DNA from: Escherichia coli
GTDB lineage: Bacteria > Pseudomonadota > Gammaproteobacteria > Enterobacterales > Enterobacteriaceae
Length of the DNA stretch: 64,000 bases
NCBI RefSeq assembly: GCF_036507355.1
Contig: NZ_AP027877.1
Reading direction: 5' to 3' (one strand)
The translations under genes were made by a program, and so were the position numbers. The notes under the pieces were generated by a model. That model was given only the letters and a program-made list of their open reading frames with translations, made no database searches and was not told where the DNA came from. Numbering within the stretch: position 1 is the first letter of the stretch; every line of letters begins with the position of its first letter. Of the stretch, positions 1 to 53,276 are shown piece after piece.

Positions 1-73
1 CTTCTCCTTTAGGATGTTTTCACTCCCCGAAATGGGGATAAAAGGCAAATAAAATAACTAAAGGATTTATTCA

Positions 74-1207
74 ATGAAAAGCAAAGTACTGGCACTTTTA
101 ATTCCTGCCCTGCTCGCCGCAGGTGCTGCACATGCAGCCGAAGTTTATAATAAAGACGGCAACAAATTAGATCTGTATGGCAAAGTTGATGGCCTGCATT
201 ATTTTTCAGATAATTCGGCGAAAGATGGCGACCAGAGCTATGCGCGTCTGGGTTTTAAAGGCGAAACCCAAATTAACGATCAACTTACTGGCTACGGTCA
301 ATGGGAATACAATATTCAGGCAAACAACACTGAATCTTCAAAAAACCAGTCATGGACCCGTCTGGCATTTGCCGGACTGAAATTTGCAGATTACGGTTCT
401 TTCGATTACGGACGTAATTATGGCGTAATGTACGACATCGAAGGCTGGACCGATATGCTGCCTGAATTTGGCGGTGACTCTTATACCAATGCAGACAACT
501 TTATGACTGGTCGAGCCAATGGCGTCGCGACTTATCGTAATACTGATTTCTTCGGTCTGGTAAATGGTCTGAACTTCGCGGTGCAGTATCAAGGTAACAA
601 CGAAGGAGCCAGTAATGGTCAGGAAGGCACCAACAACGGACGTGATGTTCGCCATGAAAACGGTGACGGCTGGGGTCTTTCCACAACATATGATTTAGGC
701 ATGGGCTTTAGCGCTGGTGCGGCATACACCTCTTCTGACCGCACCAATGACCAGGTTAACCATACTGCGGCGGGTGGTGATAAAGCAGACGCGTGGACTG
801 CTGGGCTAAAATACGATGCTAACAATATTTACCTGGCAACCATGTATTCAGAAACGCGTAATATGACCCCGTTTGGCGACAGCGATTATGCTGTTGCAAA
901 CAAAACCCAGAACTTTGAAGTCACTGCACAGTACCAGTTTGATTTTGGTCTGCGTCCGGCAGTCTCTTTCCTGATGTCTAAAGGCCGTGACCTGCACGCT
1001 GCCGGTGGTGCAGACAACCCGGCAGGTGTTGATGATAAAGATCTGGTTAAATACGCCGATGTTGGCGCGACTTACTATTTCAATAAAAACATGTCCACTT
1101 ATGTTGACTATAAAATCAACCTGTTGGATGAAGATGACAGTTTCTACGCTGCCAACGGCATCTCTACCGATGATATTGTCGCTTTAGGTCTGGTTTATCA
1201 GTTCTAA
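74..1207 (+). CDS. ompN: outer membrane porin OmpN
   Basis: 377-aa ORF with signal peptide ([21 protein letters not shown]), porin-type beta-strand pattern and C-terminal LVYQF; matches remembered OmpN. Confidence 0.9.
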
Positions 1208-1215
1208 ATCCTCCT

Positions 1216-1239
1216 GCCCGCTGTTATGGCGGGCTTTTT
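1216..1239 (+). terminator. rho-independent terminator after ompN
   Basis: GC stem gcccgc/gcgggc followed by a T-run directly after the ompN stop. Confidence 0.6.
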
Positions 1240-1266
1240 CTGCTTATTCTTCCTCCTTTGATCTAA

Positions 1267-1782
<516 letters not shown>

Positions 1783-1790
1783 CACTAACG

Positions 1791-1815
1791 CCCGCACATT
1801 GCTGCGGGCTTTTTG
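1791..1815 (+). terminator. rho-independent terminator after uspF
   Basis: stem gcccgca/tgcgggc followed by ttttt. Confidence 0.6.
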
Positions 1816-1957
1816 ATTCATTTCGCAAATGTGCTGACATTTTCCCCTCTAATCCGTACCATACACGCCACAGTTTTTATATCAGATTTCTTATGCTGGG
1901 CGTTCCGGCATGACGCATACTCTTCTGATGCCATATAACGAATTGAGTCGCTTTTAA

Positions 1958-2011
1958 ATGTCGCAAAATCAAGAAATTAGCAAGAAAGAACAATACAACC
2001 TGAACAAGTAA
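1958..2011 (+). pseudogene. ttcC: displaced 5' fragment of ttcA at the prophage end (ttcC-like)
   Basis: 17-codon [20 protein letters not shown] closely resembling the ttcA N-terminus at 13115; contains the 26-bp att core. Confidence 0.7.
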
Positions 2012-2110
2012 GGGCAAAAATCACAACTATCTGACTCATAAGTGTTTTACTTATTTTTCAATGTGTTAAACATCATCAGCGAGAACAATAAACTACGATA
2101 ATCAACTCTT

Positions 2111-2160
2111 TTTTTGCCCCTTTTTTGCCCCTTTTGCAGCGTTTTGCCCCATTTTTGCCA
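2111..2160 (+). repeat. three direct TTTGCCCC repeats next to the tail-side att core (putative integrase arm-type sites)
   Basis: tttgcccc at 2114-2121, 2125-2132 and 2144-2151; same motif twice at 13072-13090 beside the int-side core. Confidence 0.5.
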
Positions 2161-2248
2161 CAAAAAAAAATTCCAAAACGTCTCAATCAAAGTCAAACCA
2201 ACCGCAGCACGTTCTTGCTTAAGACGTGCTGCGGCATAATCCCAATGA

Positions 2249-2833
2249 TTACTCCCTGACAGGGTTCGTAGGCCACTCAATATCAGGTGCAGTTGATGTA
2301 TCAACACGGTTCAGCAACACCCGATACTTTTTCCAGGCTTCCAGCAATGAGGTTTCTTCCTCCGTTGCGATTTCCAGATCCACAGCATCCTGAAGTGGCG
2401 CAATATGCTCACTGGCTACCTGCATCAGGCTGTTTTTTGTTTCTTCCGCCTCTCGGATCCGGAACAGTTTTTCTGCTTCTGCATCTTTCACCCAGGCTGT
2501 GCCGTTCCACTTCTGAAACTCCCCTTCCGGCGATAACCAGGTAACATTTTCCGGTAACGGACCGAGTTCAGAAATAAATAACGCGTCCCCTGACGCTACG
2601 TCATAAACCGTTTTACCCCGATGGTCTTCAACGAGATGCCACGATGCCTCATCACTGTTGAAAACAGCCACGAAGCCTGCCGGAATATCTGGCGGTGCAA
2701 TATCGGTACTGTTTGCTGGCAGACCTGTATGAGGCGGAATATATGCATCACCTTCACCAATAAATTCATTAGTTCCGGCCAGCAGATTATAAATTTTTAT
2801 GGTCCGTGGTTGTTCACTCATTCTGAATGCCAT
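2249..2833 (-). CDS. tfaR: tail fibre assembly protein
   Basis: 194-aa [23 protein letters not shown]... typical lambdoid Tfa, directly downstream of the tail fibre fragment. Confidence 0.85.
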
Positions 2834-3750
2834 TATGCAAGCCTCACAATGTAGTTAAATGCGATGTTTTTGACGGTGTTTTCCGCGTTACCCGCAGCGT
2901 TAACGGTGATGGTGTGTCCATGTGAGCCAATCGAAACAGAGTGCGTATGAGCACCAATTCCGACAGTATGTGCGTGAGCACCTGCAGATGCAGCTGTGCC
3001 GCTGACACTATGAGTGTGCGCTCCTGCAGCACTTGTATTCACACTGGCCGCAGACACAACCTTATGTACTGACCCATTTTGTGACTACTGGCTGACTGCT
3101 GATGCGCCTGTGACACTATGAGTATGGTTTCCGGCACTTGCGGCTGTACCGCTCACACTGTGTGTATGTGCCCCGGTGTTATTCGTAGATTTAGTGCCGT
3201 AATCAAACGACGATGTGGTTTTCGTACCCAAATCCGTACTGGATGCGCTGGCGCTGTGGGTGTGCGATTTAATACCGTCCTGTTCCTGAGACAATACGGC
3301 CCGACCACTGGCAGGTTTGCCCTTAATCGTCCAGCCACGCATATCAGGGATCACGCCTGACGGATAAGCGGCTGCAAGTTTCGGGTAAGCAGATTTGTCA
3401 AAAGTTTGCCCCTGCATCAGGGCATAGCCAGACGGAACGGTATCTGATGGCCACGGGATTGGTGCACCGACTGGATAAAACTCTGCAGGAGGATGAGCTG
3501 AGGTGTAAAGCTGCGCCCACGGCGACCAGTTTGCGTCGGTCGTATCCCGTCGTGAACGAATAAATGCCGGAGCATGAGCACCGCTTGTACCACTCCAGCC
3601 GATGAGTAACTCACCTTCGCCAACGGCTGTCATCCCTTTCAGGTGAATGATATTTCCATACGCTGTTGGATATCCGTTGTTATACACCTCGTATAACTCA
3701 AGACCTGTTGCCCCCTGCGTATTGTCTGTCAGCGCGGTTAGCCGCCATTG
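2833..3750 (-). pseudogene. stfR: side tail fibre C-terminal fragment with in-frame amber stop
   Basis: open frame from the TGA at 3751-3753 through ...[23 protein letters not shown]... with [13 protein letters not shown] repeats; TAG at 3085-3087 splits it; N-terminal bulk of the gene absent. Confidence 0.8.
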
Positions 3751-4217
3751 TCACCAAGAAAATCCCCGCCCTGCGACATAGCGATGGAAAGAGCAGGTAT
3801 TGATTCGTAGTACGCCAGCATTTCAGAAAGGATCGCATCCAGTTTCCTTATCGGAAAATAGGCCTGGTCATAGTTGCGATCCACCCGAAACTGGAACTCG
3901 TGATAATCATCATCGAGCTGAATGAAGTATTTACACCCGACCAGTTTTGCCTGGTCGAAACAGGCATTACGGGCGTAAAAAATTGAGCGGCGGTCACAGA
4001 AATTATCGGCTTCGTCAAAACGACTGGCGATATCGGCTTTGGAAAACACCAGCACCTGTTCACCAAATTCAGCCATGTACTGATGCCGTGTCTTATCTTC
4101 ATCATCAACAACGATAAAAATTTTCCCGGTATAGCCAGCACGACGCAACGTCCGGTAAGTCAGAACTTTGTCCGGTCGCCCGTGAGTCAGAATAAAGGCG
4201 CAAAAATCATCACGCAT
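3738..4217 (-). CDS. GT-A fold glycosyltransferase-like protein, probably C-terminally truncated
   Basis: 159 aa from the ATG overlapping the upstream stop (ATGCGTGA) behind a GGAGGAGGA RBS; motifs FILTHGRPD...IFIVVDDED and [23 protein letters not shown] resemble GT2 signatures including DxD. Confidence 0.5.
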
Positions 4218-5001
4218 ATTCCTCCTCCTCACCACCATGCATGATCTCCACCATGCGCTGCGTCATCCGGACAAATCCATTTTCAATAGCCTGCTGATAA
4301 TCAATGATCACCAGCGCCGACTCCTCGAAAAAACACTGAATTTCAGCGGGGGCGTGAGCGTAATAGTCCGCAATTCTGCTGAAATTAAACACCGTGTGAC
4401 GTTCTGCCGCACACAGGAGGAATTTCTCAATATCAGGCTCAAGGGACGCCGAACGTATCCGGCTGATCAGCTCCTGAGTTTTCGTATCGTCGTACAGTTC
4501 ACTGATATCCGGTTTACCGCCCGACGGCTCATAAACAGGCGTATCAATTTTCGTCGTATACGGCTCCTCCTCATTTCCTGTACCGGGCAAAACATCCGTC
4601 AACAGTTCATCAATTTCTGTCGGGATGAAGCCTGTCAGGGAGACATCAAAATCAGCATTGATTAGGTCCGACAGCTCCATCCGCAACAGATCTTCATCCC
4701 AGCCAGCATTCATCGGCAGGCGATTATCTGCCAGGCGGTACGCCTTTTTCTGCTCATCCGTCAGGCCAGACAGAACAATGACCGGAACAGAATCCATTTT
4801 GAGCATTTCAGCCGCCATAACACGACCGTGACCCGCAATAATTTCGCCCTTTTCGTCAATCAGCACCGGATTAGTCCAGCCGAATTGCTTAATACTTTCT
4901 ACCAGTTGTGCCACCTGCTCAGTACTGTGCGTCCTGGCGTTGTGCGCATACGGTGACAATTCTTGTAATGGGCGATAGACTATCTTTAATTTCTCGCTCA
5001 T
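4210..5001 (-). CDS. ParB/Srx-fold (ParB-like nuclease domain) protein, ynaK-like
   Basis: 263-aa ORF; N-terminal region with GHGR motif (IIAGHGRVMAAEML) typical of the ParB/sulfiredoxin fold; acidic C-terminus. Confidence 0.6.
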   Translation of the reverse strand: MSEKLKIVYRPLQELSPYAHNARTHSTEQVAQLVESIKQFGWTNPVLIDEKGEIIAGHGRVMAAEMLKMDSVPVIVLSGLTDEQKKAYRLADNRLPMNAGWDEDLLRMELSDLINADFDVSLTGFIPTEIDELLTDVLPGTGNEEEPYTTKIDTPVYEPSGGKPDISELYDDTKTQELISRIRSASLEPDIEKFLLCAAERHTVFNFSRIADYYAHAPAEIQCFFEESALVIIDYQQAIENGFVRMTQRMVEIMHGGEEEEYA

Positions 5002-5138
5002 ACAGCCTTGCTTTATGAATAAAACGCACCCCAGCAGCCAGTGCTACTGGGGACGGAGGTGTTGCTGGTAAAGTTAGGTATTGGATCAATGAGTGAGTCA
5101 ACATAATATTAAACTCACAATTATAAATCAGCCATATA

Positions 5139-6614
5139 TTAGGAGCGCCAAAAAAAACCTGAAAACAATATAATAACAGGATAAATTTCAAGGCGACCAA
5201 GAATCATAGCTATGCACATTAAACATTTTGCAATGTCATTAAGCACTCCGAATGACGATGCAGTAGCCCCAAAACCTAATCCCATATTATTAATACATGC
5301 AGCCACTGTTGCAAATGATGTAAGAAAATCATATCCCATACCATTTAACACCAGTATAAAAAACACCGTGAAGAGAGTATAAAGAAAAAAGAAACTCCAT
5401 ACAGACCTCATTACACGATCTGTAACTATCTTCCCTCCTACATTTACACTCAACAACGCTCTGGGATGAGAAAGCTGATTTATCTCGTGTTTGCTTTGTT
5501 TGAAAAGTATAAGAAATCGAAGTGACTTAATTCCACCACAAGTTGAACCTATACATCCCCCAAAGAAACTTGACAACAGCAAAAACACTATCGTGTGCGT
5601 GGGCCAACTTGCATAATCCTGCGTAGCTAAACCATTATCAGTGAGCATGGAGCTGGCAAGAAAAAACGAATGAATAAAACTTCCATGCAAGTCATACATA
5701 CCTATATGCCAGACCTGGAAAGAGGTAACAATGATCACCCCTAAGGCTATTAACAGAAAGAAACGAAGTTCAATATCTCTGATTAAAGGTTTTATCGTTT
5801 TCCTGCTAATAACAATATACCAAAGAGTGAAGTTGAAAGCCGATAGCAGGGAAAAAGAACCAGCCACCAGCTCAACCAAATAGTTATTAAAATATCCGAT
5901 ACTCTCGCTATGAGTTGAGAAACCACCAAGCGAAACTGTGGAAATCCCGTGACAAATAGCATCAAACAAAGGCATTCCTGCAAGTCTATAACAGACAATA
6001 CAAGCAATACCTAATAAAGAATAAGTTATCCACAGTGTCCGTGACGTATCGGCCAGGCGGGGAGTGAGTTTGTCATCCTTAAATGGCCCCGGCATTTCTG
6101 ACTGATAAAGCTTTGCACCACCAATACCCAATAATGGCAATACAGCAACCGCCAGAACAATAACTCCTAAACCACCTATAAAATTTAACTGTGACCGATA
6201 GTACAAATATGCCCGAGGTAATGAACTAACATCATCAATTACAGTTGCTCCTGTTGTTGTTATTCCAGAAACCCCTTCAAACAGAGCATCAATGAACGTT
6301 AAATTAAGTTCTGAGTCAATCCATAAAGGGAATGCACTAATAACAGAAAACAAAATCCAAAACATTACAATTATAATAAACCCATCACGGGTACGTAATT
6401 GAATGCCAGATTTCTTAGTTGTATACCACGCTCCGCCACCAATGCAAAAAAATATAACGAAAGTTATAAAGAAAACGAACAGGCTTTTTTCTTTATAAAA
6501 CAATGCTACAACCATTGGTGGCAACATTGAAAGACTATAGAGCCAAACCAGGAACCCACACATATGAGTAACAACTCTTACATGAGATGTATTCATATCT
6601 AAATATTCTTTCAA
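5139..6614 (-). CDS. trkG: Trk potassium uptake protein TrkG (prophage moron)
   Basis: polytopic membrane protein with TrkH/TrkG-type repeats; AT-rich relative to flanks; likely true start at 6596 (MNTSHVRVV...). Confidence 0.9.
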   Translation of the reverse strand: MKEYLDMNTSHVRVVTHMCGFLVWLYSLSMLPPMVVALFYKEKSLFVFFITFVIFFCIGGGAWYTTKKSGIQLRTRDGFIIIVMFWILFSVISAFPLWIDSELNLTFIDALFEGVSGITTTGATVIDDVSSLPRAYLYYRSQLNFIGGLGVIVLAVAVLPLLGIGGAKLYQSEMPGPFKDDKLTPRLADTSRTLWITYSLLGIACIVCYRLAGMPLFDAICHGISTVSLGGFSTHSESIGYFNNYLVELVAGSFSLLSAFNFTLWYIVISRKTIKPLIRDIELRFFLLIALGVIIVTSFQVWHIGMYDLHGSFIHSFFLASSMLTDNGLATQDYASWPTHTIVFLLLSSFFGGCIGSTCGGIKSLRFLILFKQSKHEINQLSHPRALLSVNVGGKIVTDRVMRSVWSFFFLYTLFTVFFILVLNGMGYDFLTSFATVAACINNMGLGFGATASSFGVLNDIAKCLMCIAMILGRLEIYPVIILFSGFFWRS

Positions 6615-6731
6615 TTATAACCACCTTGCTGCAATATTATGATTATACTGTATAAAATTTAACTCCTCTTAGATCTTACTTCACTGTTCCTTATGAAACA
6701 ATCATCAAAATGAATCATATTGTAGTTAAGA

Positions 6732-6862
6732 TTTTACTTTAAACACTGCTCGGTTATGTATTGCTGAGCACCTTCAAGTTGGGCCTGCATCATTACCAGT
6801 CGTTCCCGGAGGGTGAAATAATCCCGTTCAGCGGTGTCTGCCAGTCGGGGGGAGGCTGCATT
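6732..6862 (-). pseudogene. rzpR: Rz-like endopeptidase C-terminal fragment
   Basis: frame reading ...LADTAERDYFTLRERLVMMQAQLEGAQQYITEQCLK-stop, matching the Rz C-terminus; cut off by IS3 at 6863. Confidence 0.6.
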
Positions 6863-6892
6863 TGATCCTACCCACGTAATATGGACACAGGC

Positions 6893-7759
6893 CTAAGCGA
6901 GGTTCTGGTTTTCAAATTGTTCCGGACTGAGGCCGCCACACCAACTGTGCCGCCGCCACCGATTGTAATCACATTCGATATAATTAAACACCGTTGCCCG
7001 CATTATTTCCCGGCTGATAAAGTGTTCTCCATGGATACATTCCACTTTCAGCGAATGAAAGAAGCTTTCCACGCAGGCATTATCGTAGCAGCAACCTTTT
7101 GCGCTCATACTTCCACGCAGATTATGCCGCTTCAGTTGCGCCTGATAATCTGCTGAACAGTACTGGCCTCCACGGTCCGTGTGAACGATAACGTTCCGGG
7201 GCCTCTTACGCCGCCACAGCGCCATCTGCAGGGCATCGCAGGCCAGTTGCGCCGTCATGCGTGGCGACATTGACCAGCCAATAACGGCACGTGACCACAG
7301 GTCAATGACCACTGCCAGATACAGCCAGCCTTCATCTGTACGTAAGTACGTGATGTCTCCTGCCCACTTCTGGTTCGGGCCACTGGCGTAAAAATCCTGC
7401 TCCAACAGATTTTCTGACACAGGCAGGCCGTGTGCGCGGTAGCTGACCGGGCTGAACTTCCGGGAGGCCTTTGCCCTCAGTCCCTGACGGCGCAGGCTTG
7501 CCGCCACGGTTTTTACGTTAAAGGGGTAACCCTGAGCACGCAGTTCATCCGTCAGGCGTGGGGCACCGTAACGCTGTTTTGACCGGGTAAAAGCCGCGAG
7601 GACAACGCTGTCGCAGTGTTGGCGGAACTGCTGACGCGTGCTTATCCTTGTCCGCCGCTGACACCACGTATACCAGCCGCTGCGGGCCACCCGGAGCACG
7701 CGGCACATTGCTTTGATGCTGAACTCAGCCTGATGTTTTTCAATAAAGACATACTTCAT
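6893..7759 (-). CDS. insF: IS3 transposase OrfB (DDE integrase domain)
   Basis: 288-aa [35 protein letters not shown]... with DDE-type catalytic region. Confidence 0.9.
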
Positions 7760-8064
7760 TTCAGGCGCTTCGCGAAGTATGTCGCGGCCTTTTGGAGGAT
7801 AGCCAGCTCTTCATCCCGTTCTGCCAGCTGGCGTTTGAGACGTGCAATCTCGGTAGACATCTCCAGTTCACGTTCAGAAGACGTCTGCTGATTTTGCTGT
7901 TTACTGCGCCAGTTGTAGAGCTGTGATTCATACAGGCTGAGTTCACGGGCTGCGGCAGTAACACCGATGCGTTCAGCAAGCTTCAGGGCTTCACTGCGAA
8001 ATTCAGGCGAATGCTGTTTACGGGGTTTTTTACTGGTTGATACTGTTTTTGTCATGTGAGTCAC
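7756..8064 (-). CDS. insE: IS3 transposase OrfA
   Basis: 102-aa HTH protein [34 protein letters not shown]... Confidence 0.9.
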
Positions 8065-8120
8065 CTCTGACTGAGAGTTTACTCACTTAGCCGCGTGTCC
8101 ACTATTGCTGGGTAAGATCA

Positions 8121-9500
8121 CCGGACGCAACTGAACATCATCAGGACACGCAGCCGCTGGATGCTCAGTCACAGGTAAATTCTGTTGATGCGAAATATCA
8201 GGAACTGCGGGCAGAACTCCATGAAGCCCGGAAAAACATTCCATCAAAAAATCCTGTCGATGCCGATAAATTGCTTGCTGCATCACGTGGTGAATTTGTT
8301 GACGGAATTAGCGACCCGAACGATCCGAAATGGGTAAAGGGGATCCAGACTCGCGATTGTGTGTACCAGAACCAGCCAGAAACGGAAAAAACCAGCCCAG
8401 ATATGAATCAACCTGAGCCAGTAGTGCAACAGGAACCGGAAATAGCCTGCAATGCCTGCGGCCAGACTGGCGGGGATAACTGCCCTGACTGTGGTGCGGT
8501 GATGGGCGACGCAACATACCAGGAAACATTCGATGAAGAGAGTCAGGTTGAAGCTAAGGAAAATGATCCGGAGGAAATGGAAGGCGCTGAACATCCGCAC
8601 AATGAGAATGCTGGCAGCGATCCGCATCGCGATTGCAGTGATGAAACTGGCGAAGTCGCAGATCCCGTAATCGTAGAAGACATAGAGCCAGGTATTTATT
8701 ACGGAATTTCGAATGAGAATTACCACGCGGGTCCCGGTATCAGTAAGTCTCAGCTCGATGACATTGCTGATACTCCGGCACTATATTTGTGGCGTAAAAA
8801 TGCCCCCGTGGACACCACAAAGACAAAAACGCTCGATTTAGGAACTGCTTTCCACTGCCGGGTACTTGAACCGGAAGAATTCAGTAACCGCTTTATCGTA
8901 GCACCTGAATTTAACCGCCGTACAAACGCCGGAAAAGAAGAAGAGAAAGCGTTTCTGATGGAATGCGCAAGCACAGGAAAAACGGTTATCACTGCGGAAG
9001 AAGGCCGGAAAATTGAACTCATGTATCAAAGCGTTATGGCTTTGCCGCTGGGGCAATGGCTTGTTGAAAGCGCCGGACACGCTGAATCATCAATTTACTG
9101 GGAAGATCCTGAAACAGGAATTTTGTGTCGGTGCCGTCCGGACAAAATTATCCCTGAATTTCACTGGATCATGGACGTGAAAACTACGGCGGATATTCAA
9201 CGATTCAAAACCGCTTATTACGACTACCGCTATCACGTTCAGGATGCATTCTACAGTGACGGTTATGAAGCACAGTTTGGAGTGCAGCCAACTTTCGTTT
9301 TTCTGGTTGCCAGCACAACTATTGAATGCGGACGTTATCCGGTTGAAATTTTCATGATGGGCGAAGAAGCAAAACTGGCAGGTCAACAGGAATATCACCG
9401 CAATCTGCGAACCCTGTCTGACTGCCTGAATACCGATGAATGGCCAGCTATTAAGACATTATCACTGCCCCGCTGGGCTAAGGAATATGCAAATGACTAA
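8121..9500 (+). pseudogene. recE: exonuclease VIII (RecE) C-terminal fragment, N-terminally truncated at the IS3 junction
   Basis: frame open from the IS3 boundary; ends ...[13 protein letters not shown] and overlaps the recT start as in Rac; about 460 of ~866 codons remain. Confidence 0.8.
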
Positions 9501-10302
9501 GCAACCACCAATCGCAAAAGCCGATCTGCAAAAAACTCAGGGAAACCGTGCACCAGCAGCAGTTAAAAATAGCGACGTGATTAGTTTTATTAACCAGCCA
9601 TCAATGAAAGAGCAACTGGCAGCAGCTCTTCCACGCCATATGACGGCTGAACGTATGATCCGTATCGCCACCACAGAAATTCGTAAAGTTCCGGCGTTAG
9701 GAAACTGTGACACTATGAGTTTTGTCAGTGCGATCGTACAGTGTTCACAGCTCGGACTTGAGCCAGGTAGCGCCCTCGGTCATGCATATTTACTGCCTTT
9801 TGGTAATAAAAACGAAAAGAGCGGTAAAAAGAACGTTCAGCTAATCATTGGCTATCGCGGCATGATTGATCTGGCTCGCCGTTCTGGTCAAATCGCCAGC
9901 CTGTCAGCCCGTGTTGTCCGTGAAGGTGACGAGTTTAGCTTCGAATTTGGCCTTGATGAAAAGTTAATACACCGCCCGGGAGAAAACGAAGATGCCCCGG
10001 TTACCCACGTCTATGCTGTCGCAAGACTGAAAGACGGAGGTACTCAGTTTGAAGTTATGACGCGCAAACAGATTGAGCTGGTGCGCAGCCTGAGTAAAGC
10101 TGGTAATAACGGGCCGTGGGTAACTCACTGGGAAGAAATGGCAAAGAAAACGGCTATTCGTCGCCTGTTCAAATATCTGCCCGTATCAATTGAGATCCAG
10201 CGTGCAGTATCAATGGATGAAAAGGAACCACTGACAATCGATCCTGCAGATTCCTCTGTATTAACCGGGGAATACAGTGTAATCGATAATTCAGAGGAAT
10301 AA
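9493..10302 (+). CDS. recT: recombinase RecT (single-strand annealing protein)
   Basis: 269 aa starting [24 protein letters not shown]... Confidence 0.9.
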
Positions 10303-10431
10303 TTCAGCCTGGCGGTGTAATGCACCGCCAACTTGAAATATTTTTTATGAGAAAAATTATGAGATATGACAATGTTGGTGATGCTGCCAACTTACTGATT
10401 TAGTGTATGATGGTGTTTTTGAGGTGCTCCA

Positions 10432-10707
10432 GTGGCTTCTGTTTCTATCAGCTGTCCCTCCTGTTCAGCTACTGACGGGGTGGTGCGTAACGGCAAAAGC
10501 ACCGCCGGACATCAGCGCTATCTCTGCTCTCACTGCCGTAAAACATGGCAACTGCAGTTCACTTACACCGCTTCTCAACCCGGTACGCACCAGAAAATCA
10601 TTGATATGGCCATGAATGGCGTTGGATGCCGGGCAACAGCCCGCATTATGGGCATTGGCCTCAACACGATTTTACGTCACTTAAAAAACTCAGGCCGCAG
10701 TCGGTAA
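10432..10707 (+). CDS. insA: IS1 InsA
   Basis: 91-aa [23 protein letters not shown]... zinc-finger/HTH protein; A6C frameshift motif near 10683. Confidence 0.9.
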
Positions 10708-11129
10708 CCTCGCGCATACAGCCGGGCAGTGACGTCATCGTCTGCGCGGAAATGGACGAACAGTGGGGCTATGTCGGGGCTAAATCGCGCCAGCGCTGGC
10801 TGTTTTACGCGTATGACAGGCTCCGGAAGACGGTTGTTGCGCACGTATTCGGTGAACGCACGATGGCGACGCTGGGGCGTCTTATGAGCCTGCTGTCACC
10901 CTTTGACGTGGTGATATGGATGACGGATGGCTGGCCGCTGTATGAATCCCGCCTGAAGGGAAAGCTGCACGTAATCAGCAAGCGATATACGCAGCGAATT
11001 GAGCGGCATAACCTGAATCTGAGGCAGCACCTGGCACGGCTGGGACGGAAGTCGCTGTCGTTCTCAAAATCGGTGGAGCTGCATGACAAAGTCATCGGGC
11101 ATTATCTGAACATAAAACACTATCAATAA
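10626..11129 (+). CDS. insB: IS1 InsB (expressed as the InsAB' frameshift fusion)
   Basis: 167-aa ORF overlapping insA in the -1 frame. Confidence 0.85.
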
Positions 11130-11322
11130 GTTGGAGTCATTACCGACAATGTTAAACCATGTCCATTTTGTGGTTGTCCATCAGTAACGGTGAAAGCCAT
11201 TTCAGGATATTACCGAGCGAAGTGTAACGGATGCGAATCCCGAACCGGTTATGGTGGAAGTGAAAAAGAAGCACTCGAAAGATGGAATAAACGAACCACT
11301 GGAAATAATAATGGAGGTGTTC

Positions 11323-11532
11323 ATGTATAAAATTACCGCCACTATTGAAAAGGAAGGTGGCACTCCTACTAACTGGACAAGATATTCAAAATCTAAACTA
11401 ACGAAATCAGAATGCGAAAAAATGCTCTCAGGTAAAAAAGAAGCAGGCGTTTCCAGAGAGCAGAAAGTAAAACTGATAAATTTTAATTGCGAGAAACTTC
11501 AGTCCTCGAGAATTGCATTGTATTCAAATTAA
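11323..11532 (+). CDS. ydaC: Rac prophage small protein YdaC
   Basis: 69 aa MYKITATIEKEGGTPTNWTRYSKSKL...; conserved position between ralR and xis. Confidence 0.7.
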   Translation: MYKITATIEKEGGTPTNWTRYSKSKLTKSECEKMLSGKKEAGVSREQKVKLINFNCEKLQSSRIALYSN

Positions 11533-11610
11533 AACTTCATAGCTGATTATTAATAATCAACATCGGGCGTCAATTTCAGTCTAACATTGGCGCCTGCCAG
11601 AGGTGATGCG

Positions 11611-11826
11611 ATGGCACAAGTAATCTTTAATGAAGAGTGGATGGTTGAATACGGCCTGATGCTTCGCACTGGTCTGGGGGCCAGACAAATTGAAGCATAC
11701 CGCCAGAACTGTTGGGTGGAGGGCTTCCACTTCAAACGAGTATCTCCTTTAGGTAAGCCAGACAGCAAACGAGGGATTATCTGGTACAACTATCCAAAGA
11801 TAAATCAGTTTATCAAAGACTCATGA
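11611..11826 (+). CDS. xisR: prophage excisionase
   Basis: small protein [33 protein letters not shown]... immediately upstream of the integrase. Confidence 0.7.
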
Positions 11827-11827
11827 T

Positions 11828-13063
11828 ATGTCTAAATTACCAACAGGTGTCGAGATTAGAGGTAGATACATTCGCATCTGGTTCATGTTTCGAGGAAAAC
11901 GATGTCGGGAAACATTAAAAGGCTGGGAGATTACAAACAGTAATATTAAAAAGGCCGGAAATTTAAGAGCGCTGATAGTTCATGAAATAAACTCCGGTGA
12001 ATTTGAGTATTTAAGACGTTTTCCCCAGTCCAGCACTGGGGCAAAAATGGTGACAACGAGAGTCATAAAAACGTTCGGAGAGCTTTGTGATATCTGGACA
12101 AAAATTAAAGAGACAGAGTTAACAACAAACACAATGAAGAAAACGAAATCACAATTAAAAACACTCAGAATAATAATTTGTGAAAGTACCCCGATATCAC
12201 ATATTCGTTATAGCGATATCTTAAACTACCGGAATGAACTGCTGCATGGAGAAACGCTTTACCTGGATAATCCAAGATCCAACAAAAAAGGAAGAACCGT
12301 GCGCACAGTTGATAACTATATCGCCCTGCTCTGTTCGCTGTTGCGTTTTGCGTATCAGTCGGGATTTATATCAACCAAACCATTTGAAGGAGTAAAAAAA
12401 TTACAGCGAAACAGAATAAAGCCTGATCCGTTATCTAAAACAGAATTCAATGCATTAATGGAAAGTGAAAAAGGACAGAGCCAGAACTTGTGGAAATTTG
12501 CCGTTTACTCAGGACTTCGTCACGGGGAACTGGCAGCTCTGGCGTGGGAGGATGTGGATCTCGAAAAGGGAATAGTGAATGTCAGAAGAAACCTGACGAT
12601 ACTTGATATGTTCGGTCCCCCAAAAACAAATGCCGGGATCCGAACAGTAACACTACTGCAGCCTGCTCTTGAAGCACTGAAGGAGCAATACAAACTGACC
12701 GGGCATCATCGCAAAAGCGAAATCACCTTTTATCATCGGGAGTACGGCAGAACCGAAAAGCAAAAACTGCATTTTGTTTTCATGCCCAGGGTGTGTAACG
12801 GAAAACAAAAACCTTATTACTCGGTAAGCAGTTTGGGGGCAAGGTGGAATGCAGCAGTAAAACGTGCTGGTATTCGCCGCCGTAATCCGTACCATACGCG
12901 GCATACTTTTGCCTGCTGGCTGTTGACGGCAGGAGCGAACCCGGCATTTATAGCCAGCCAAATGGGGCATGAAACTGCGCAGATGGTGTATGAAATTTAC
13001 GGTATGTGGATTGATGACATGAACGACGAACAGATAGCCATGTTGAATGCGCGGTTATCGTAG
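11828..13063 (+). CDS. intR: tyrosine-type prophage integrase
   Basis: 411 aa, lambda Int-like, C-terminal RHTFA...Y catalytic region; next to the att core. Confidence 0.9.
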   Translation: MSKLPTGVEIRGRYIRIWFMFRGKRCRETLKGWEITNSNIKKAGNLRALIVHEINSGEFEYLRRFPQSSTGAKMVTTRVIKTFGELCDIWTKIKETELTTNTMKKTKSQLKTLRIIICESTPISHIRYSDILNYRNELLHGETLYLDNPRSNKKGRTVRTVDNYIALLCSLLRFAYQSGFISTKPFEGVKKLQRNRIKPDPLSKTEFNALMESEKGQSQNLWKFAVYSGLRHGELAALAWEDVDLEKGIVNVRRNLTILDMFGPPKTNAGIRTVTLLQPALEALKEQYKLTGHHRKSEITFYHREYGRTEKQKLHFVFMPRVCNGKQKPYYSVSSLGARWNAAVKRAGIRRRNPYHTRHTFACWLLTAGANPAFIASQMGHETAQMVYEIYGMWIDDMNDEQIAMLNARLS

Positions 13064-13071
13064 TTGCAAAG

Positions 13072-13090
13072 TTTGCCCCCAATTTGCCCC
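13072..13090 (+). repeat. two direct TTTGCCCC repeats between the int stop and the att core (putative arm-type sites)
   Basis: gtttgcccccaatttgcccca; same motif as at 2111-2160. Confidence 0.5.
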
Positions 13091-13114
13091 ATTTAGTACC
13101 AGGGAACTGAAATA

Positions 13115-14050
13115 ATGCAAGAAAATCAACAAATTACAAAGAAAGAACAATACAACCTGAACAAATTACAAAAACGCCTGCGTCGTAACGTGGGCGAAGC
13201 CATTGCTGACTTCAATATGATTGAAGAAGGCGATCGCATCATGGTTTGCCTCTCCGGGGGTAAAGACAGCTATACCATGCTGGAGATTCTGCGCAATTTG
13301 CAGCAAAGCGCGCCAATCAATTTTTCGCTGGTGGCTGTTAACCTCGATCAAAAGCAACCGGGCTTCCCGGAACACGTTCTGCCCGAGTATCTTGAAAAGC
13401 TGGGCGTTGAGTACAAGATTGTTGAAGAGAACACTTACGGTATCGTGAAAGAGAAGATTCCAGAGGGCAAAACCACTTGCTCACTGTGTTCTCGGCTACG
13501 TCGCGGTATCCTTTATCGCACCGCAACGGAACTGGGGGCGACGAAGATCGCGCTGGGTCACCATCGTGACGATATCCTGCAAACGCTGTTCTTAAATATG
13601 TTCTACGGCGGCAAGATGAAAGGTATGCCTCCGAAATTGATGAGCGATGATGGCAAACATATCGTGATTCGTCCGCTGGCCTACTGCCGCGAGAAAGATA
13701 TTCAGCGCTTTGCCGATGCAAAAGCGTTCCCGATTATTCCGTGCAACCTGTGCGGTTCACAGCCTAACCTGCAACGTCAGGTGATTGCTGACATGTTGCG
13801 TGACTGGGATAAACGTTATCCGGGGCGTATCGAGACGATGTTCAGCGCGATGCAGAATGTGGTGCCATCGCATCTGTGCGATACCAACCTGTTCGATTTT
13901 AAAGGCATTACCCACGGTTCTGAAGTGGTTAACGGGGGTGATCTGGCGTTTGATCGCGAAGAGATCCCACTACAACCGGCGGGCTGGCAGCCAGAAGAAG
14001 ATGAAAATCAGTTGGATGAGTTACGGCTGAATGTGGTTGAAGTGAAATAA
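13115..14050 (+). CDS. ttcA: tRNA 2-thiocytidine biosynthesis protein TtcA
   Basis: 311 aa with SGGKDS PP-loop and CxxC motifs; 5' end contains the att core. Confidence 0.9.
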
Positions 14051-15812: not shown

Positions 15813-15934
15813 AAAAAAAAGCCGACTCATCAAAGTCGGCGTCGTACGAATCAATTGTGCTATGCAGTAATTCAAAAAAGGAAGTAAGACAATATGGAGC
15901 GCAACGCCCATCGCTTGACGTTGCATTCACCTGC
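15813..15934 (-). ncRNA. fnrS: FNR-activated small RNA FnrS
   Basis: reverse complement reads gcaggtgaatgcaacgtcaagcgatgggcgttgcgctccatattgtc... ending in a gccgacttt/aaagtcggc hairpin plus U-run. Confidence 0.8.
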
Positions 15935-19278: not shown

Positions 19279-20792
19279 TCAGGATGATTTATTCATAGCA
19301 GGAACCAACAAAAATGCGATAAATAACAGACCACTGATTAGCAGAAAGGTATCCGAAAATGCCATAGTTTGCGCCTCCCTCAGCATCAATTGACTCAATA
19401 ATTTGGTTGAAGCCAGTATTTCCGATGTCTGGTCACTTCCACTGCGATTAAAAAATAAAGCACTTCTGGAAATGAAGTCATTCACCGTATGGGGAACAGA
19501 AACCATTTTTTCACCCATTCTCGAAAAATGAAAATTAGTTCGATTATTGAGAATAGAGCCACACAGGGCAATACCGATCGCGCCCCCAAGATTACGTGTT
19601 AAATTAAATACACCAGAGGCTAACTTCAGCCGTTCTTTTGGAATTCCCCCCAGCGTTAATGTTACGATGGGGGCCATCGCAAACTGCTGCGAAATCCCTC
19701 TAATTGCCTGTGGAAACAGTAACTCCTGCCATCCCCATTCGTGGGTTATAGGGGTAAAAAGATACATTGAAAACACAAATCCGCCCAGCCCCGCCATCAA
19801 CAGCCATCGCAGATTTATTTTTTTACTTAACCAGAAGTAAAAGGGAACAGAAAATAACTGGAAAATACCTGTTGTGCAAACGGCAAAACCTATCTCTTCG
19901 GCATTTAATCCGCGAATCTGCCCCAAAAACACAGGTATTAAATATACAGTAGAGAATATCCCAACTCCTCCAGAAAAAGAAAAAAACATCCCAGAGTGAA
20001 ATTTTTATCCTTAAAAGCATGAAGATCCATTATCGGATTGGATATTGTAAGTGTACGCGCAGCAAATAAAATAAAACTCACCAATGCCAGAACTGATGTC
20101 AGCAAAATAGTATTATCATCCAGCCATCCCCAGCGCGCTCCTTCTTCAAGGGTATATTCCAGACATCCCAGTGTCATGGCCAACAGGATAATACTCGGAT
20201 AATCAGCAACTTTCAGTAAAGAGAGATCAGGTTTATCAAAATTAACCAGAAAAGGAATACTCAAAACTAAATATATGCCAGGTAATATATTGATATAAAA
20301 TAGCCATCGCCAGTCGAGGTTATCAGTGATCCAGCCCCCCAGAGTTGGCCCTAGCGTCGGTGACAGTGAGGCCAGCGCACTGACTACCGCAGCAGCCAAC
20401 CCCAACTCTTTACCCTGGTAATAAATAAACGCCGTCGTGAAAACTAAAGGGATCATGGATGCGCCAGCAGCTCCCTGTAAAGCACGAAACAAAATCATGA
20501 TCTGAATATTCCATGCAAGTCCACACGCGATACTCATTAAAGTAAATATTCCCGCGGATAGAGTAAAAAGCCAACGAGTGGAAAATACCCGTGACAGCCA
20601 CCCAGAGAGCGGAATAACAATAATCTCAGCAATTAAATAGCTGGTCTGAAGCCAGGCCATTTCGTCTTTACCTGCGGACAGACCACCACCTATTTCATTT
20701 AGGGATGACGATACAATTTGAATATCAAGCTGAGCAATAAATAATCCCATACACATACTGGCGAAAGCAATATGTTTACGCATAGACATCAT
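19279..20792 (-). pseudogene. EmrB-like MFS efflux transporter, frameshifted in a homopolymer run
   Basis: two overlapping ORFs (284 aa and 236 aa) that together form one 14-TM-type MFS protein; frame break at the T/A run near 19977-19984. Confidence 0.7.
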
Positions 20793-21820
20793 CTCTCATC
20801 AACACTGACGGTGACGGACAGTCCCGGGCGAAGAAGTTGCTTTAATTCCTTTGCGTCGTCAAATGCAATCCGTACCGGGACACGCTGAACAATTTTGGTG
20901 AAATTGCCAGTGGCATTTTCTATCGGAATCAAGCTGAAACTGGCTCCTGTCGCTGGGGAAAGGCTTTCAATGTGACCGTGAAACACTTCCCCTTTGAGAA
21001 TATCAGCACGGATCTCAGCCTTCATTCCTGGCTTCATTCCCGCTATTTGGTTTTCTTTATAATTTGCATCAACCCACAACTCACTGACTGGTACTAGTGA
21101 AACTAACGATGTGCCGCCTTCCACCCAACTGCCTGTATGGGCGCTGCGGTTTGCGACAATGCCATCAATCGGCGCACGAACAAGGGTATATTCCAGATCC
21201 AGTAGTGCCTGAGTCAAAGCGGCCTGAACTTCTTCGATACTCGCACGTACGTTTTCTTCCTGAGCAGATAAAACTGCCAGCCGTTGCTTCTCCACCAGGA
21301 AATCGTTCGCGGCTTTGCGCTCCTTTGCTGCGACCTGCTGGTAGTCAAACCTGGCGTTATCAATAATTTGTTGCGATATTGCCGCTGATTGTGCGAGTTT
21401 TTCATAACGTTCAGTATCTCGCAGGCGCTTTTGCTCCTCATGTTTTACTGCCTGCCATGTTTCACTGGCACTTTGAATTATCGACTGCTGCATCGCAATA
21501 GTGGCTTGAATGCTTTCGAGATTGGCTTTGCTACTTTTTATTTTTGCCTCAAGCCTGGCGACATTTGCACGATAATCCCGATCATCGAGACGCAGGATAA
21601 TATCGCCTTTTTTTACGCTCTGATTATCGCGCACCTCTATAGCAGAAATATAACCAGAAACTTTACTTGCCACCGTGGTGATATTACCACCAATGTAAGC
21701 ATCATCCGTCGTCTGTATAAATCTTCCTTTGCTTACCCACCAGATAAAAAAGACAACGCCAGTCAAAAGAATACCGATCGCTACCACCCCAATAAGCTGT
21801 TTTTTAGAAATTATCATCAC
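20789..21820 (-). CDS. HlyD/EmrA-family membrane fusion protein
   Basis: 343 aa, N-terminal TM helix, long coiled-coil, C-terminal beta domain; start overlaps the MFS gene by 4 nt. Confidence 0.75.
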   Translation of the reverse strand: MMIISKKQLIGVVAIGILLTGVVFFIWWVSKGRFIQTTDDAYIGGNITTVASKVSGYISAIEVRDNQSVKKGDIILRLDDRDYRANVARLEAKIKSSKANLESIQATIAMQQSIIQSASETWQAVKHEEQKRLRDTERYEKLAQSAAISQQIIDNARFDYQQVAAKERKAANDFLVEKQRLAVLSAQEENVRASIEEVQAALTQALLDLEYTLVRAPIDGIVANRSAHTGSWVEGGTSLVSLVPVSELWVDANYKENQIAGMKPGMKAEIRADILKGEVFHGHIESLSPATGASFSLIPIENATGNFTKIVQRVPVRIAFDDAKELKQLLRPGLSVTVSVDER

Positions 21821-50596: not shown

Positions 50597-50972
50597 GAGA
50601 TGTTCCTTTTTATTTAATCCACATAACCTGCCAGGGGCGCAGCGTTATTTCATTACCCAATATATCAACTTCACTAATCAGATCCCGACCATGCAGATCA
50701 GTAATATTTACATGCTGAATATTTTCACTGACATTAAACAATCCAGTCAGACAATTACCATCAGCGTTACTTCTTTGAATACGCATTACGGATGAATTAA
50801 CCGTATCAATGGTAAAATTATTATCCGGATGAAACTCGTTATGGCTGCGACGAAGTGTAATTAAACGCGACAACTCATGATATACCGCATGCCTTAATGT
50901 AGCTTCATCGTTCAGTTGGTGATGCTGCCAACTTACTGATTTAGTGTATGATGGTGTTTTTGAGGTGCTCCA

Positions 50973-51248
50973 GTGGCTTCTGTTTCTATCAGCTGTCCCT
51001 CCTGTTCAGCTACTGACGGGGTGGTGCGTAACGGCAAAAGCACCGCCGGACATCAGCGCTATCTCTGCTCTCACTGCCGTAAAACATGGCAACTGCAGTT
51101 CACTTACACCGCTTCTCAACCCGGTACGCACCAGAAAATCATTGATATGGCCATGAATGGCGTTGGATGCCGGGCAACAGCCCGCATTATGGGCATTGGC
51201 CTCAACACGATTTTACGTCACTTAAAAAACTCAGGCCGCAGTCGGTAA
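50973..51248 (+). CDS. insA: IS1 InsA
   Basis: identical to the insA at 10432. Confidence 0.9.
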
Positions 51249-51670
51249 CCTCGCGCATACAGCCGGGCAGTGACGTCATCGTCTGCGCGGAAATGGACGA
51301 ACAGTGGGGCTATGTCGGGGCTAAATCGCGCCAGCGCTGGCTGTTTTACGCGTATGACAGGCTCCGGAAGACGGTTGTTGCGCACGTATTCGGTGAACGC
51401 ACGATGGCGACGCTGGGGCGTCTTATGAGCCTGCTGTCACCCTTTGACGTGGTGATATGGATGACGGATGGCTGGCCGCTGTATGAATCCCGCCTGAAGG
51501 GAAAGCTGCACGTAATCAGCAAGCGATATACGCAGCGAATTGAGCGGCATAACCTGAATCTGAGGCAGCACCTGGCACGGCTGGGACGGAAGTCGCTGTC
51601 GTTCTCAAAATCGGTGGAGCTGCATGACAAAGTCATCGGGCATTATCTGAACATAAAACACTATCAATAA
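51167..51670 (+). CDS. insB: IS1 InsB
   Basis: identical to the insB at 10626. Confidence 0.85.
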
Positions 51671-53276
51671 GTTGGAGTCATTACCCGTTCAGTTCTCGTG
51701 TTATCTCTTCACTGTGATATTTTTTACGGTTAATCGCACGGTTATATCCGAGTTTTTCGACACCTGCGTAATCATTACGCGAGCCCAGAATACTTTGAAT
51801 ATATATCGCTGGCACACCGGGGAAACTTAACAAAATCGCATGGGCAAGGATAAACCTGGCGCAACGTTCTTCATCGCTACTCTCGCGGCGGCTTAACGCA
51901 TCCATATAGGTGACATTTATTTCATAGGGACTGCGCGTACCGTCGGGATTATTTTTCCAGTTTACTAATGCACCTTCCTGCTGTAATGCCTCGATCAGCG
52001 CTAATATTTCGCTTTCTGGTAACAAGCCCCGCAGTGGGTTCAGCCCGATGCCATCGTGAGAGGCGAGGAAGTTAAACCAGGTCGTTTTACCGGAGGGCAA
52101 GCTCAGACTTTGCGCCCACTGGCACAGCGCCTCGACGTTCTGTTTTTGCACCGCATGTAACACCAGCGGCGGCAGCGAGAACTGGTACACCATATGCGCT
52201 TCGTCATCGCCTTCGCCAAAGTAAGCAATGTTATCTTTATGCGGAACATTCGTCTCAGTAATAATCACCGTACCTGGCGCGATGTCATCAATAATCGACC
52301 GTAACAGTTTGATAATCAGATGTGTTTTTTCCAGATGGATGCAGCTTGTTCCCGGCTCTTTCCACATAAAGCCAACGGCATCCAGACGGACATATTCTGC
52401 GCCCTTTTCCAGGTAGCACAGCAATACATCCACCATCGCCAGCAACACTTCAGGGCTACGGTAATTGAGGTCAATTTGATCGTCGCTAAAGGTGGTCCAT
52501 AAATGGCGCGTGGAATTATCATCCATTTGAAACGGCGTTAATAGCGGTAACGCACGCGGACGGGTGACGGCACTGAGATCGGTTTTCGGATCAACCGCAA
52601 TAAAGAAATCTTTAAAACCCGGAAGCTGTTGCAAATAGTTTTTAAACCATTCACTTTTTGCCGACATATGGTTGCAGACAAAATCAAACATTAAATGACT
52701 GCATTCACCGAGCTGCTGAATATCCTGCCACTCCCCCGCTTCACTGGCGACCTGATGATAATCAATTACCGAAAATCCATCATCAGATGACCATGGATAA
52801 AAAGGTAATAAATGAACATGTGAAAAAATGCTTTGCAGCCATTGGTGGTAAAACTGATTAAATGTGGGTAGTGGTTTTAAATCATTACTGTGAAATTGAT
52901 CGGCATAGGTAATTAACACGACGTCACTTTCATCCCAGTGTTTTTTACGTCGCTGTGTAATTAATCGTTTCGCACTCTCAAGACGCGTTACAAGTTTCTG
53001 TAAATGAGTTGCGGTAAATGTTCCACCGTAGATTTCGCCCAGGTAATCCGTAATTTTCTGTTTCATGTTGCCTTTCCGTGGTAGCGGTCCCATGAAACGA
53101 GAGACTACTCCGCAGAAAATAAACTGTCAATTGAGCACAAGGGTTTTAGTCACGCAGGAAATCATTTTTTACCAGGGAAAAAGCGTATTTGTGAGCTGAC
53201 GCAAATAATCTATAGGGATGTAAATAAGGTGTGACAGAAAAAAACGGCGCATAAGCGCCGCTCATGGTGAATTCTT

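Follow-up and report, generated by a model that had tools for sequence, protein, structure and literature searches.

The closest described relative of the locus analyzed here is the Rac prophage of Escherichia coli K-12, a 23,060-bp excision unit located in ttcA. In K-12, IntR and XisR have been shown to excise Rac (PMC4632033), four changes at the TtcA N-terminus have been reported (PMC4632033, PMC11014345), and depletion of RacR raises xisR and intR mRNA by ~100-fold (PMC11014345). With RacR present, K-12 xisR also undergoes an RpoS-dependent induction of ~110-fold during stationary phase.

We examined a 64,000-nucleotide stretch of an E. coli contig (NZ_AP027877.1; hereafter "the window"), in which an 11.2-kb (11,183-bp) leftover of a Rac-type lambdoid prophage lies within the 5′ end of ttcA, sharing with K-12 Rac the integration site, the 26-bp core and the arm-type sites. 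Its features are, by window position:

1982–2007, plus strand: attR core on the uspF side, 26 bp, an exact repeat of 13139–13164 and equal to the K-12 core
2113–2150, plus strand: three arm-type repeats TTTGCCCC of the P arm, starting at 2113, 2124 and 2143
2198–2234, plus strand: hairpin (CCGCAGCACGT...ACGTGCTGCGG) marking a cargo insertion point, empty in the window
2249–2833, minus strand: tfaR, tail fibre assembly; intact ORF of 194 codons, DNA 99.4% identical to NCTC9064
2834–3740, minus strand: 3′ fragment of a tail fibre gene, ~300 codons, NCTC9064 allele, with Collar and Phage_fiber domains
3741–4217, minus strand: 5′ fragment of a TAGT gene, 159 of 310 codons (Pfam PF20691, E=9e-24)
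4210–5001, minus strand: ParB/Srx-like gene, intact, 263 codons
5139–6596, minus strand: trkG, K+ transporter cargo, intact; 485 of 485 residues as in K-12 TrkG
6737–6862, minus strand: remainder of rzpR, an Rz-type lysis gene (last 42 codons)
6863–8120, minus strand: IS3, 1,258 bp, lacking a target-site duplication
8121–9500, plus strand: 3′ part of recE, codons 408–866 (Pfam DUF3799)
9493–10302, plus strand: recT, intact; 269 of 269 residues as in K-12
10359–11330, plus strand: ralR toxin gene, interrupted after codon 6 by IS1
10377–11144: IS1 in ralR, 768 bp, with the 9-bp duplication GACAATGTT at 10368–10376 and 11145–11153
11329–11507, minus strand: RalA antitoxin sRNA, full length (Rfam RF02694, 225 bits, model positions 1–179 of 179)
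11323–11532, plus strand: rcbA (ydaC), intact; 69 of 69 residues identical to K-12
11611–11826, plus strand: xisR excisionase, intact; 71 of 71 residues identical to K-12
11828–13063, plus strand: intR tyrosine integrase, intact; 411 of 411 residues identical to K-12
13072–13090, plus strand: two arm-type repeats TTTGCCCC of the P′ arm
13139–13164, plus strand: attL core, inside codons 9–17 of the current ttcA (13115–14050)

An earlier note on this DNA had pointed to two identical 26-bp att cores, and both were recovered (AAGAAAGAACAATACAACCTGAACAA); the same 26-mer bounds K-12 Rac. The copies start 11,157 bp apart, each within a 43-nt repeat of 93% identity, while the chance expectation of a repeated 26-mer in 16 kb is ~3e-8 (an arithmetic estimate). 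Read from the sequence, the 5′ end of the ancestral ttcA′ has its ATG at 1958 and continues into the attR core, and the predicted TtcA and TtcA′ differ by Q2S, E3Q, Q6E and T8S, the same four changes as published for K-12. The duplicated ttcA 5′ end, the core and the replaced TtcA N-terminus thus indicate a Rac-type integration, which would have been mediated by IntR. In addition, IntR and XisR orthologues adjoin attL, and gene order is collinear in BLAST maps against K-12 and the Rac-type prophages of E7 and NCTC9064. The K-12 region encoding RacR and the YdaS-YdaT immunity module has no match; with this module deleted, the element is a remnant and not a complete Rac. The window's TtcA variant is widespread, and the best identity of the window flanks among complete E. 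coli genomes was 99.2%, or ~97.3% for the 39–64 kb portion. Overall, we favor with considerable confidence an account in which a Rac prophage decayed by two deletions, kept a putatively excision-competent module, and became a stable, rarely lost island.

The six genes that had been listed as retained (intR, xisR, ydaC, recT, trkG and tfaR) were all found, the first five encoding proteins fully identical to K-12 in tblastn searches and the sixth 95.8% identical to K-12 TfaR; elsewhere, the window's TfaR protein appeared only on one short metagenome contig. Within the stretch aligned with K-12 (11145–13230), the part from ralR through the attL core has a single DNA difference, at 13103. The losses were also largely as the earlier note had stated: racR, ydaS/T/U/V, sieB, kilR, racC, tape measure, lom, pinR and ydfK(ynaE)/ynaM were absent in the K-12 comparison. 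Most of recE had been counted among them, which was wrong, as RecE retains 459 of 866 residues (53%), including the whole PD-(D/E)XK nuclease domain. The TAGT fragment belongs to a TET-associated, "GREB1-related" glycosyltransferase gene; no record was found for a 166-aa version of this stub. The adjacent ParB/Srx-like gene is matched by K-12 ynaK (87 aa) over its first 86 codons only. The IS1 insertion in ralR had been overlooked previously.

Deletion as the origin of the element's size was borne out, and comparison with suitable references suggests that just two large deletions, from a prophage of ~40–52 kb, explain it. The earlier note had counted several, measured against the ~23-kb K-12 layout. 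However, ~1 kb of the window (3741–4747) is missing from K-12, so K-12 is not the ancestral layout, and using it inflates the number of deletions and underestimates their size. The fitting references are the full-length Rac-type prophages of E7 (51.9 kb) and NCTC9064 (41.4 kb): both are collinear with the window and 99.4–100% identical on either side of each junction. Relative to them, the window is missing two blocks, the morphogenesis genes (~23.2 kb) and the lysis-to-recE genes (~15.3 kb). Specifically, window positions 1–3744 align to NCTC9064 at 99.4% identity with no gaps, and 3741–6862 and 8120–10376 are 99.9–100% identical to both NCTC9064 and E7. Two proposed junctions, at the IS3 (6863/8120) and at about 3740–3750, were confirmed, the latter at 3740/3741, and genes are truncated at both.

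The first deletion (~23.2 kb) joins the tail fibre gene to the TAGT gene at 3740/3741, where 4 bp (GCCG, 3741–3744) are common to both parent sequences; through illegitimate recombination at this microhomology, the prophage may have lost the tail fibre gene's 5′ part, every other tail, head and terminase gene, and one half of a glycosyltransferase gene. An exact 45-mer across the junction was absent from GTDB representative genomes, and none of 5,426 complete genomes carried the window's 3740 junction or IS1 in ralR. Two apparent matches to the latter proved to be two-piece alignments with different spacing and were rejected. The 3740 junction is present, with the same truncated TAGT product, on 6 independent public contigs and is thus not an assembly artefact.

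At the second deletion (~15.3 kb), the IS3 replaces full-length prophage DNA. Its flanks (ATT and CCG) do not form a 3-bp target duplication, and its neighbors lie 15.3 kb apart in E7. An IS3-associated event would have taken lysis, late-control, replication and immunity genes (racR, ydaS/T), kil/sieB, and the first 407 recE codons. An identical IS3-recE junction occurs in Ec1120, OY754416 and OY754389, while the other IS3 end adjoins DUF977 in Ec1120 and lies 270 bp further into Rz in the draft genome L017. The pattern resembles IS-mediated adjacent deletion, in that the flanks are non-duplicated and non-contiguous, several genomes have one end at the same place, recE codon 408, and the other varies; such a constant end facing a variable one fits nested one-sided deletions, a mechanism deduced here from end points alone, and homologous recombination between two IS3 copies could instead have produced the deletion. 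Subsequently, IS1 would have entered ralR and a nonsense mutation arisen in the tail fibre stub, which carries a W-to-stop change, although this order of events is inferred from few genomes.

A third junction had been suggested between tfaR and the att arm region. This is instead undeleted, cargo-free backbone: the near full-length NCTC9064 prophage is collinear here, with the same attR-tfaR arrangement and tail fibre allele. K-12 carries pinR/ydfK/ynaM to the right of the hairpin and E7 carries sitABCD to its left, whereas the window and NCTC9064 carry neither, so that the K-12 and E7 genes represent alternative cargo for a single site, which the hairpin marks. Three segments without K-12 match (2235–2270, 3002–3148 and 3475–3740) were considered as additional junctions and rejected, being contiguous in NCTC9064.

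The small size and the position of int and xis at one end could also suggest an ancestrally small element, such as a satellite or PICI-like island, or an assembly collapsed at IS copies. The present data contradict both, leaving this reading very improbable: five genes at or near junctions are truncated or disrupted (tail fibre, TAGT, Rz, recE and ralR), either side of every junction is almost perfectly collinear with full-length prophages, and the junctions recur in independent assemblies. Likewise, no replication, primase or packaging-redirection genes were found, nor the pri-rep and helper-exploitation genes of PICIs; the element's coding sequence consists entirely of Rac genes or IS elements.

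We then considered whether this decayed Rac prophage could still excise. As had been claimed, int and xis are intact, as are the two cores and the arm-type repeats: the cores agree at 26 of 26 bases, and putative arm-type sites occur in both arms (three in P, two in P′). The TTTGCCCC motif occurs 10 times in the window, where 2.8 occurrences would be expected; 5 of the 10 adjoin the cores, and the P-arm offsets (+131, +142 and +161) are the same in the window and 7 other Rac variants. The attR arm allele is common to the window, NCTC9064, 23CRST025 and BE2-5, all encoding the same IntR protein. NCTC9064 carries an identical C-to-T change in both of its cores, as expected if the 26-mer is the region of exchange. 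Judging from sequence, all cis and coding requirements known for IntR/XisR are present, making excision plausible. Since trkG sits between the cores, it would be lost in the process, as the earlier note had anticipated; the excised DNA would measure 11,157 bp, and the ancestral ttcA′, with its four N-terminal residue changes, would be re-formed.

How often this would happen depends on the expression of xisR and intR. In the window, racR and its operators are deleted together with all DNA from there to recE codon 408, and IS3 and IS1 now lie upstream of xisR. With RacR-controlled induction gone and no replication genes, only rare basal excision is expected, and the element would probably behave as a stable, rarely excising island, occasionally lost through basal, possibly RpoS-dependent, xisR expression. 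A stricter alternative is a fully grounded remnant, fixed in the chromosome because xisR and intR are never expressed enough. Consistent with this, the early-left promoter is missing along with racR and its operators, the ~100-fold rise in K-12 occurs only when RacR falls, the left-hand junctions persist across several independent assemblies, and a consensus scan of 11100–13200 for promoters and terminators, including the region upstream of xisR, yielded nothing above shuffled expectation. However, the window and K-12 have the same 466 bp upstream of xisR, and the RpoS-dependent induction there with RacR present is compatible with a local promoter, such that we regard complete grounding as possible yet doubtful. 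Conversely, if RacR acts on a local promoter, excision would be frequent once RacR is lost, contrary to our prediction.

A further possibility is that E. coli lineages have independently arrived at a 10–14 kb "minimal Rac" (always with attL/attR, arm sites, intR-xisR, recT and trkG) which selection maintains as a reversible or one-way switch, a domesticated module toggling the ttcA N-terminus and promoter and shedding trkG. Five independently reduced variants (10.2–14.0 kb) keep the cores, arm sites, intR, xisR, recT and trkG, and Liu et al. report a functional change of TtcA upon excision. Genome counts point the same way: of the 5,426 complete genomes, 1,827 have xisR-intR (≥80% coverage) and 555 have the K-12-type racR-ydaST block; these counts, like those for trkG, are rough retention frequencies, and mosaic immunity alleles make the 555 too low. 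Retention may also be positional, as int and xis lie at one end by an expressed host gene and deletions are internal. Moreover, intR itself is interrupted by IS1 in some genomes, and Rac DNA is 99.9–100% identical among strains, which leaves too little variation for a test of purifying selection. We consider this reading unlikely, and retain the account of a decaying Rac prophage left as a stable island with attL, attR, arm sites, xisR, intR, recT, the nuclease half of recE, rcbA, RalA sRNA, trkG, the ParB-like gene and tfaR.

The locus adds one more end state of Rac decay, with toxic and lytic functions purged and cargo and recombination genes kept, and has little importance beyond annotation. 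It does indicate that deletions in other strains are poorly judged against K-12 Rac, and a racR-less remnant with int, xis and att intact offers a convenient natural test of whether the promoter through which RacR controls excision is local or a distant early one.

Compared with K-12 Rac, DNA identity is ~99.9% over trkG and from recE′-recT to intR, but just ~95% for the tfaR/tail-fibre/attR-arm allele. The window is without racR/ydaS/T/U/V, sieB, kilR, racC, recE codons 1–407, the ynaA/lom/IS5 remnants and pinR-ydfK-ynaM, and has instead IS3 and IS1 as well as the intact 263-aa ParB-like gene and TAGT stub, both lost from K-12. As a ttcA-borne Rac remnant, it is one among many comparable E. 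coli remnants, an ordinary finding with little new. The short remnants in 23CRST025 (10.2 kb), BE2-5 (13.0 kb), FT130 (14.0 kb) and AR_0061 have likewise lost racR/immunity and kept trkG, recT, xisR and intR. The first three keep both cores and arm sites, while in AR_0061 an IS3 splits recT and a pattern match was obtained for the attR-side core only. Three of these four carry IS3, and deletion end points and IS3 positions differ in every lineage.

The Rac-type assignment proposed by the earlier note, and the reality of the element itself (11,183 bp from the attR core to the attL core, in the 5′ end of ttcA), were borne out by the cores, by proteins identical to those of K-12, and by collinearity with the Rac-type prophage of NCTC9064. 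Two copies of the 26-mer AAGAAAGAACAATACAACCTGAACAA were found at 1982–2007 and 13139–13164 of the window, both embedded in a 43-nt repeat with 93% identity, and the identical 26-mer forms the ends of Rac in K-12 W3110. The right core lies within codons 9–17 of ttcA (13115–14050), while the left core follows an alternative 5′ end of ttcA that has its ATG at 1958. Joining this left 5′ end to the right copy would yield ttcA′, with TtcA residues 2, 3, 6, and 8 altered, i.e., the four-residue change described for K-12 Rac excision (PMC4632033; PMC11014345). The octamer TTTGCCCC occurs 10 times in the 64-kb window vs. 2.8 expected, and five of these copies adjoin the cores (three at 2113–2150, two at 13072–13090), at offsets identical in seven other Rac variants. 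Given the cores, the ttcA′ residue match, and the octamers beside the cores, the Rac remnant is real and far beyond chance. Its attR arm allele is common to NCTC9064 and to two other short Rac remnants (BE2-5 and 23CRST025), all three of which share the IntR protein of the window. In NCTC9064, both cores (composite 15893 and 57265) have T where the window, K-12, and E7 have C, the same substitution at each end, so that the two ends vary in concert, a pattern consistent with the 26-mer acting as the exchange region.

K-12 Rac, given in the earlier note as about 23 kb, indeed measures 23,086 bp with both cores included, but proved a poor reference layout: it is itself a remnant, without a counterpart to window 3741–4747, and fuller Rac-type prophages are available. 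Among complete E. coli genomes, the same cores enclose 51,906 bp in E7, a stretch that encodes tail, head, terminase, lysis, replication, immunity, and recombination functions; the NCTC9064 prophage measures 41,398 bp. Alignment to these two references confirmed deletion, with 23,237 bp and 15,263 bp missing.

Core-to-core size of Rac-type prophages (in the loci compared).
E7: 51.9 kb
NCTC9064: 41.4 kb
K-12: 23.1 kb
FT130 (short remnant): 14.0 kb
BE2-5 (short remnant): 13.0 kb
Window: 11.2 kb
23CRST025 (short remnant): 10.2 kb

When K-12 Rac proteins were searched against the window (tblastn), IntR, XisR, RcbA (YdaC), RecT, and TrkG were recovered at full length with 100% identity, and TfaR with 95.8%. 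RecE, said earlier to be mostly lost, retains residues 408–866, including the whole PD-(D/E)XK nuclease domain (Pfam DUF3799), while only the last 42 residues of the Rz-type lysis protein are kept. As previously stated for most of these genes, racR, ydaS/T/U/V, sieB, kilR, racC, the tape-measure and lom fragments, and pinR/ydfK/ynaM had no match in the window. A 768-bp IS1 (10377–11144) that the earlier note overlooked is flanked by a perfect 9-bp duplication (GACAATGTT) and interrupts ralR after codon 6 by simple insertion, with RalR residues 4–64 present downstream; none was seen at this site in other genomes. The RalA antitoxin sRNA is full length (Rfam, 11329–11507), so that 10359–11507 holds an inactivated type I toxin gene and an orphan antitoxin. 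A second IS1 copy (~50915–51680) is identical to this one over at least 300 bp. In total, IS DNA and the 9-bp duplication account for 2,035 bp of the element, and the other 9,148 bp are phage-derived. Rfam also matched IS009 inside tfaR (2292–2490, minus strand) and, downstream of dbpA/ynaL, the sRNA FnrS (frnS; 15817–15934, minus strand).

Of three deletion junctions proposed earlier, those at the IS3 and at 3740/3741 stood, whereas the one between tfaR and the att arm did not, and the number of deletions was thus overstated. Window 1–3744, comprising the attR core, arm, tfaR, and ~900 bp of a tail fibre gene (a stub with a W-to-stop change vs. NCTC9064), aligns to NCTC9064 gap-free at 99.4% identity and therefore contains no deletion junction. 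This stretch includes a hairpin at 2198–2234 (K-12, 3198–3236; E7 composite, 9005–9040). In K-12 the hairpin has pinR-ydfK-ynaM after it; in E7 and FT130 it has sitABCD before it. Backbone sequence is present to the left and right of the hairpin in the window, part of this backbone has been lost in K-12 and likewise in E7, and only NCTC9064, among 5,426 complete genomes, shares the cargo-free state at this locus. The conserved hairpin adjoining the attR arm marks a cargo hot spot, with alternative cargo on opposite sides.

At 3740/3741, the tail fibre gene is joined to a TET-associated glycosyltransferase (TAGT) gene, with four bases (GCCG, 3741–3744) common to both parental alignments and 23,237 bp of NCTC9064 sequence missing. 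This junction was not found in any complete E. coli genome, and the truncated 159-aa TAGT product occurs on six public contigs, including two NCBI draft assemblies, which indicates a real, lineage-specific junction. Window 3741–4747 encodes TAGT codons 1–159 and an intact 263-aa ParB/Srx protein. The Rac-type TAGT gene (Pfam TAGT; PGAP “GREB1-related protein”, 310 aa) and the ParB/Srx-like gene overlap and lie between trkG and the small terminase gene (window 3741–5001; E7 19545–21261). The ParB-like gene begins with a stretch matched by K-12 ynaK; in the window only TAGT is truncated. The pair may form a DNA-modification module.

The IS3 (6863–8120, 1,258 bp) connects Rz codon 108 with recE codon 408, where E7 has 15,263 bp and K-12 has 7,349 bp instead; its flanks (ATT and CCG) showed no 3-bp duplication. 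The IS3–recE junction is identical in the relatives Ec1120, OY754416, and OY754389, while the opposite IS3 end adjoins a DUF977 gene in Ec1120 and lies 270 bp deeper into Rz in draft L017 (draft relatives with IS3: GCA_905398635.1, GCA_905398585.1). Successive one-sided IS-adjacent deletions would be expected to leave one end constant and the other variable, as here, and we infer that they produced the recE/Rz gap; IS3–IS3 recombination is a possible alternative mechanism.

The integrase, excisionase, cores, and arm repeats described earlier as intact are so, and all tested sequence requirements for IntR/XisR recombination are present, identical or nearly so to K-12 (one DNA difference from ralR to the attL core end). 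K-12 Rac is excised by IntR and XisR, XisR binds attR, and xisR rises ~110-fold in stationary phase, RpoS-dependently (PMC4632033); lowering RacR, whose operators lie upstream of racR, raises xisR/intR ~100-fold and cures cells of Rac (PMC11014345). Here, racR, its operators, and everything down to recE codon 408 are deleted, and IS3 and IS1 lie upstream of xisR, so that the repressor-controlled excision route would be lost. On excision, the chromosome would lose 11,157 bp, trkG among them, and regain ttcA′, with a predicted attB junction of ...TTTTAAATGTCGCAAAATCAAGAAATTAGCAAGAAAGAACAATACAACCTGAACAA joined to ATTACAAAAACGCCTGCG and a circle (attP) junction of ...GAAATAATGCAAGAAAATCAACAAATTACAAAGAAAGAACAATACAACCTGAACAA joined to GTAAGGGCAAAAATCACAAC; without replication genes, the circle would be diluted out. 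Constitutive excision would be expected if RacR acted through a local promoter; that these junctions have persisted across several assemblies speaks against it. We instead expect the remnant to remain as a stable island that excises rarely, at a basal level, if at all, its retention and loss both presumably harmless since the kil and ydaS/T toxins and, through the IS1 insertion, also ralR have been lost. An IS1 splits the Rac intR of several complete E. coli genomes, another route to prophage immobilisation.

Rac-internal DNA is 99.9–100% identical to K-12, NCTC9064, and E7, i.e., more conserved than the surrounding chromosome: the Rac flanks show 99.0–99.4% identity to their best complete E. 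coli matches (none near-identical across the window), and the ycj/puu region (39–64 kb) only ~97.3%. Rac variability has been reviewed (PMC6379469). racR and the immunity region are missing from each of the four short loci (FT130, BE2-5, the one in the window, and 23CRST025), which have in common the two cores, the arm sites, xisR, intR, recT, and trkG and differ from one another in their end points. Across the 5,426 complete genomes (≥80% coverage), xisR-intR was detected in 1,827, trkG in 1,538, and the K-12-type ydaT-ydaS-racR block in 555. Together, these loci and counts identify a short, immunity-less Rac with int, xis, and att as a recurrent state rather than an oddity, and the window Rac is a new deletion variant, one of many, of a very well known cryptic prophage.
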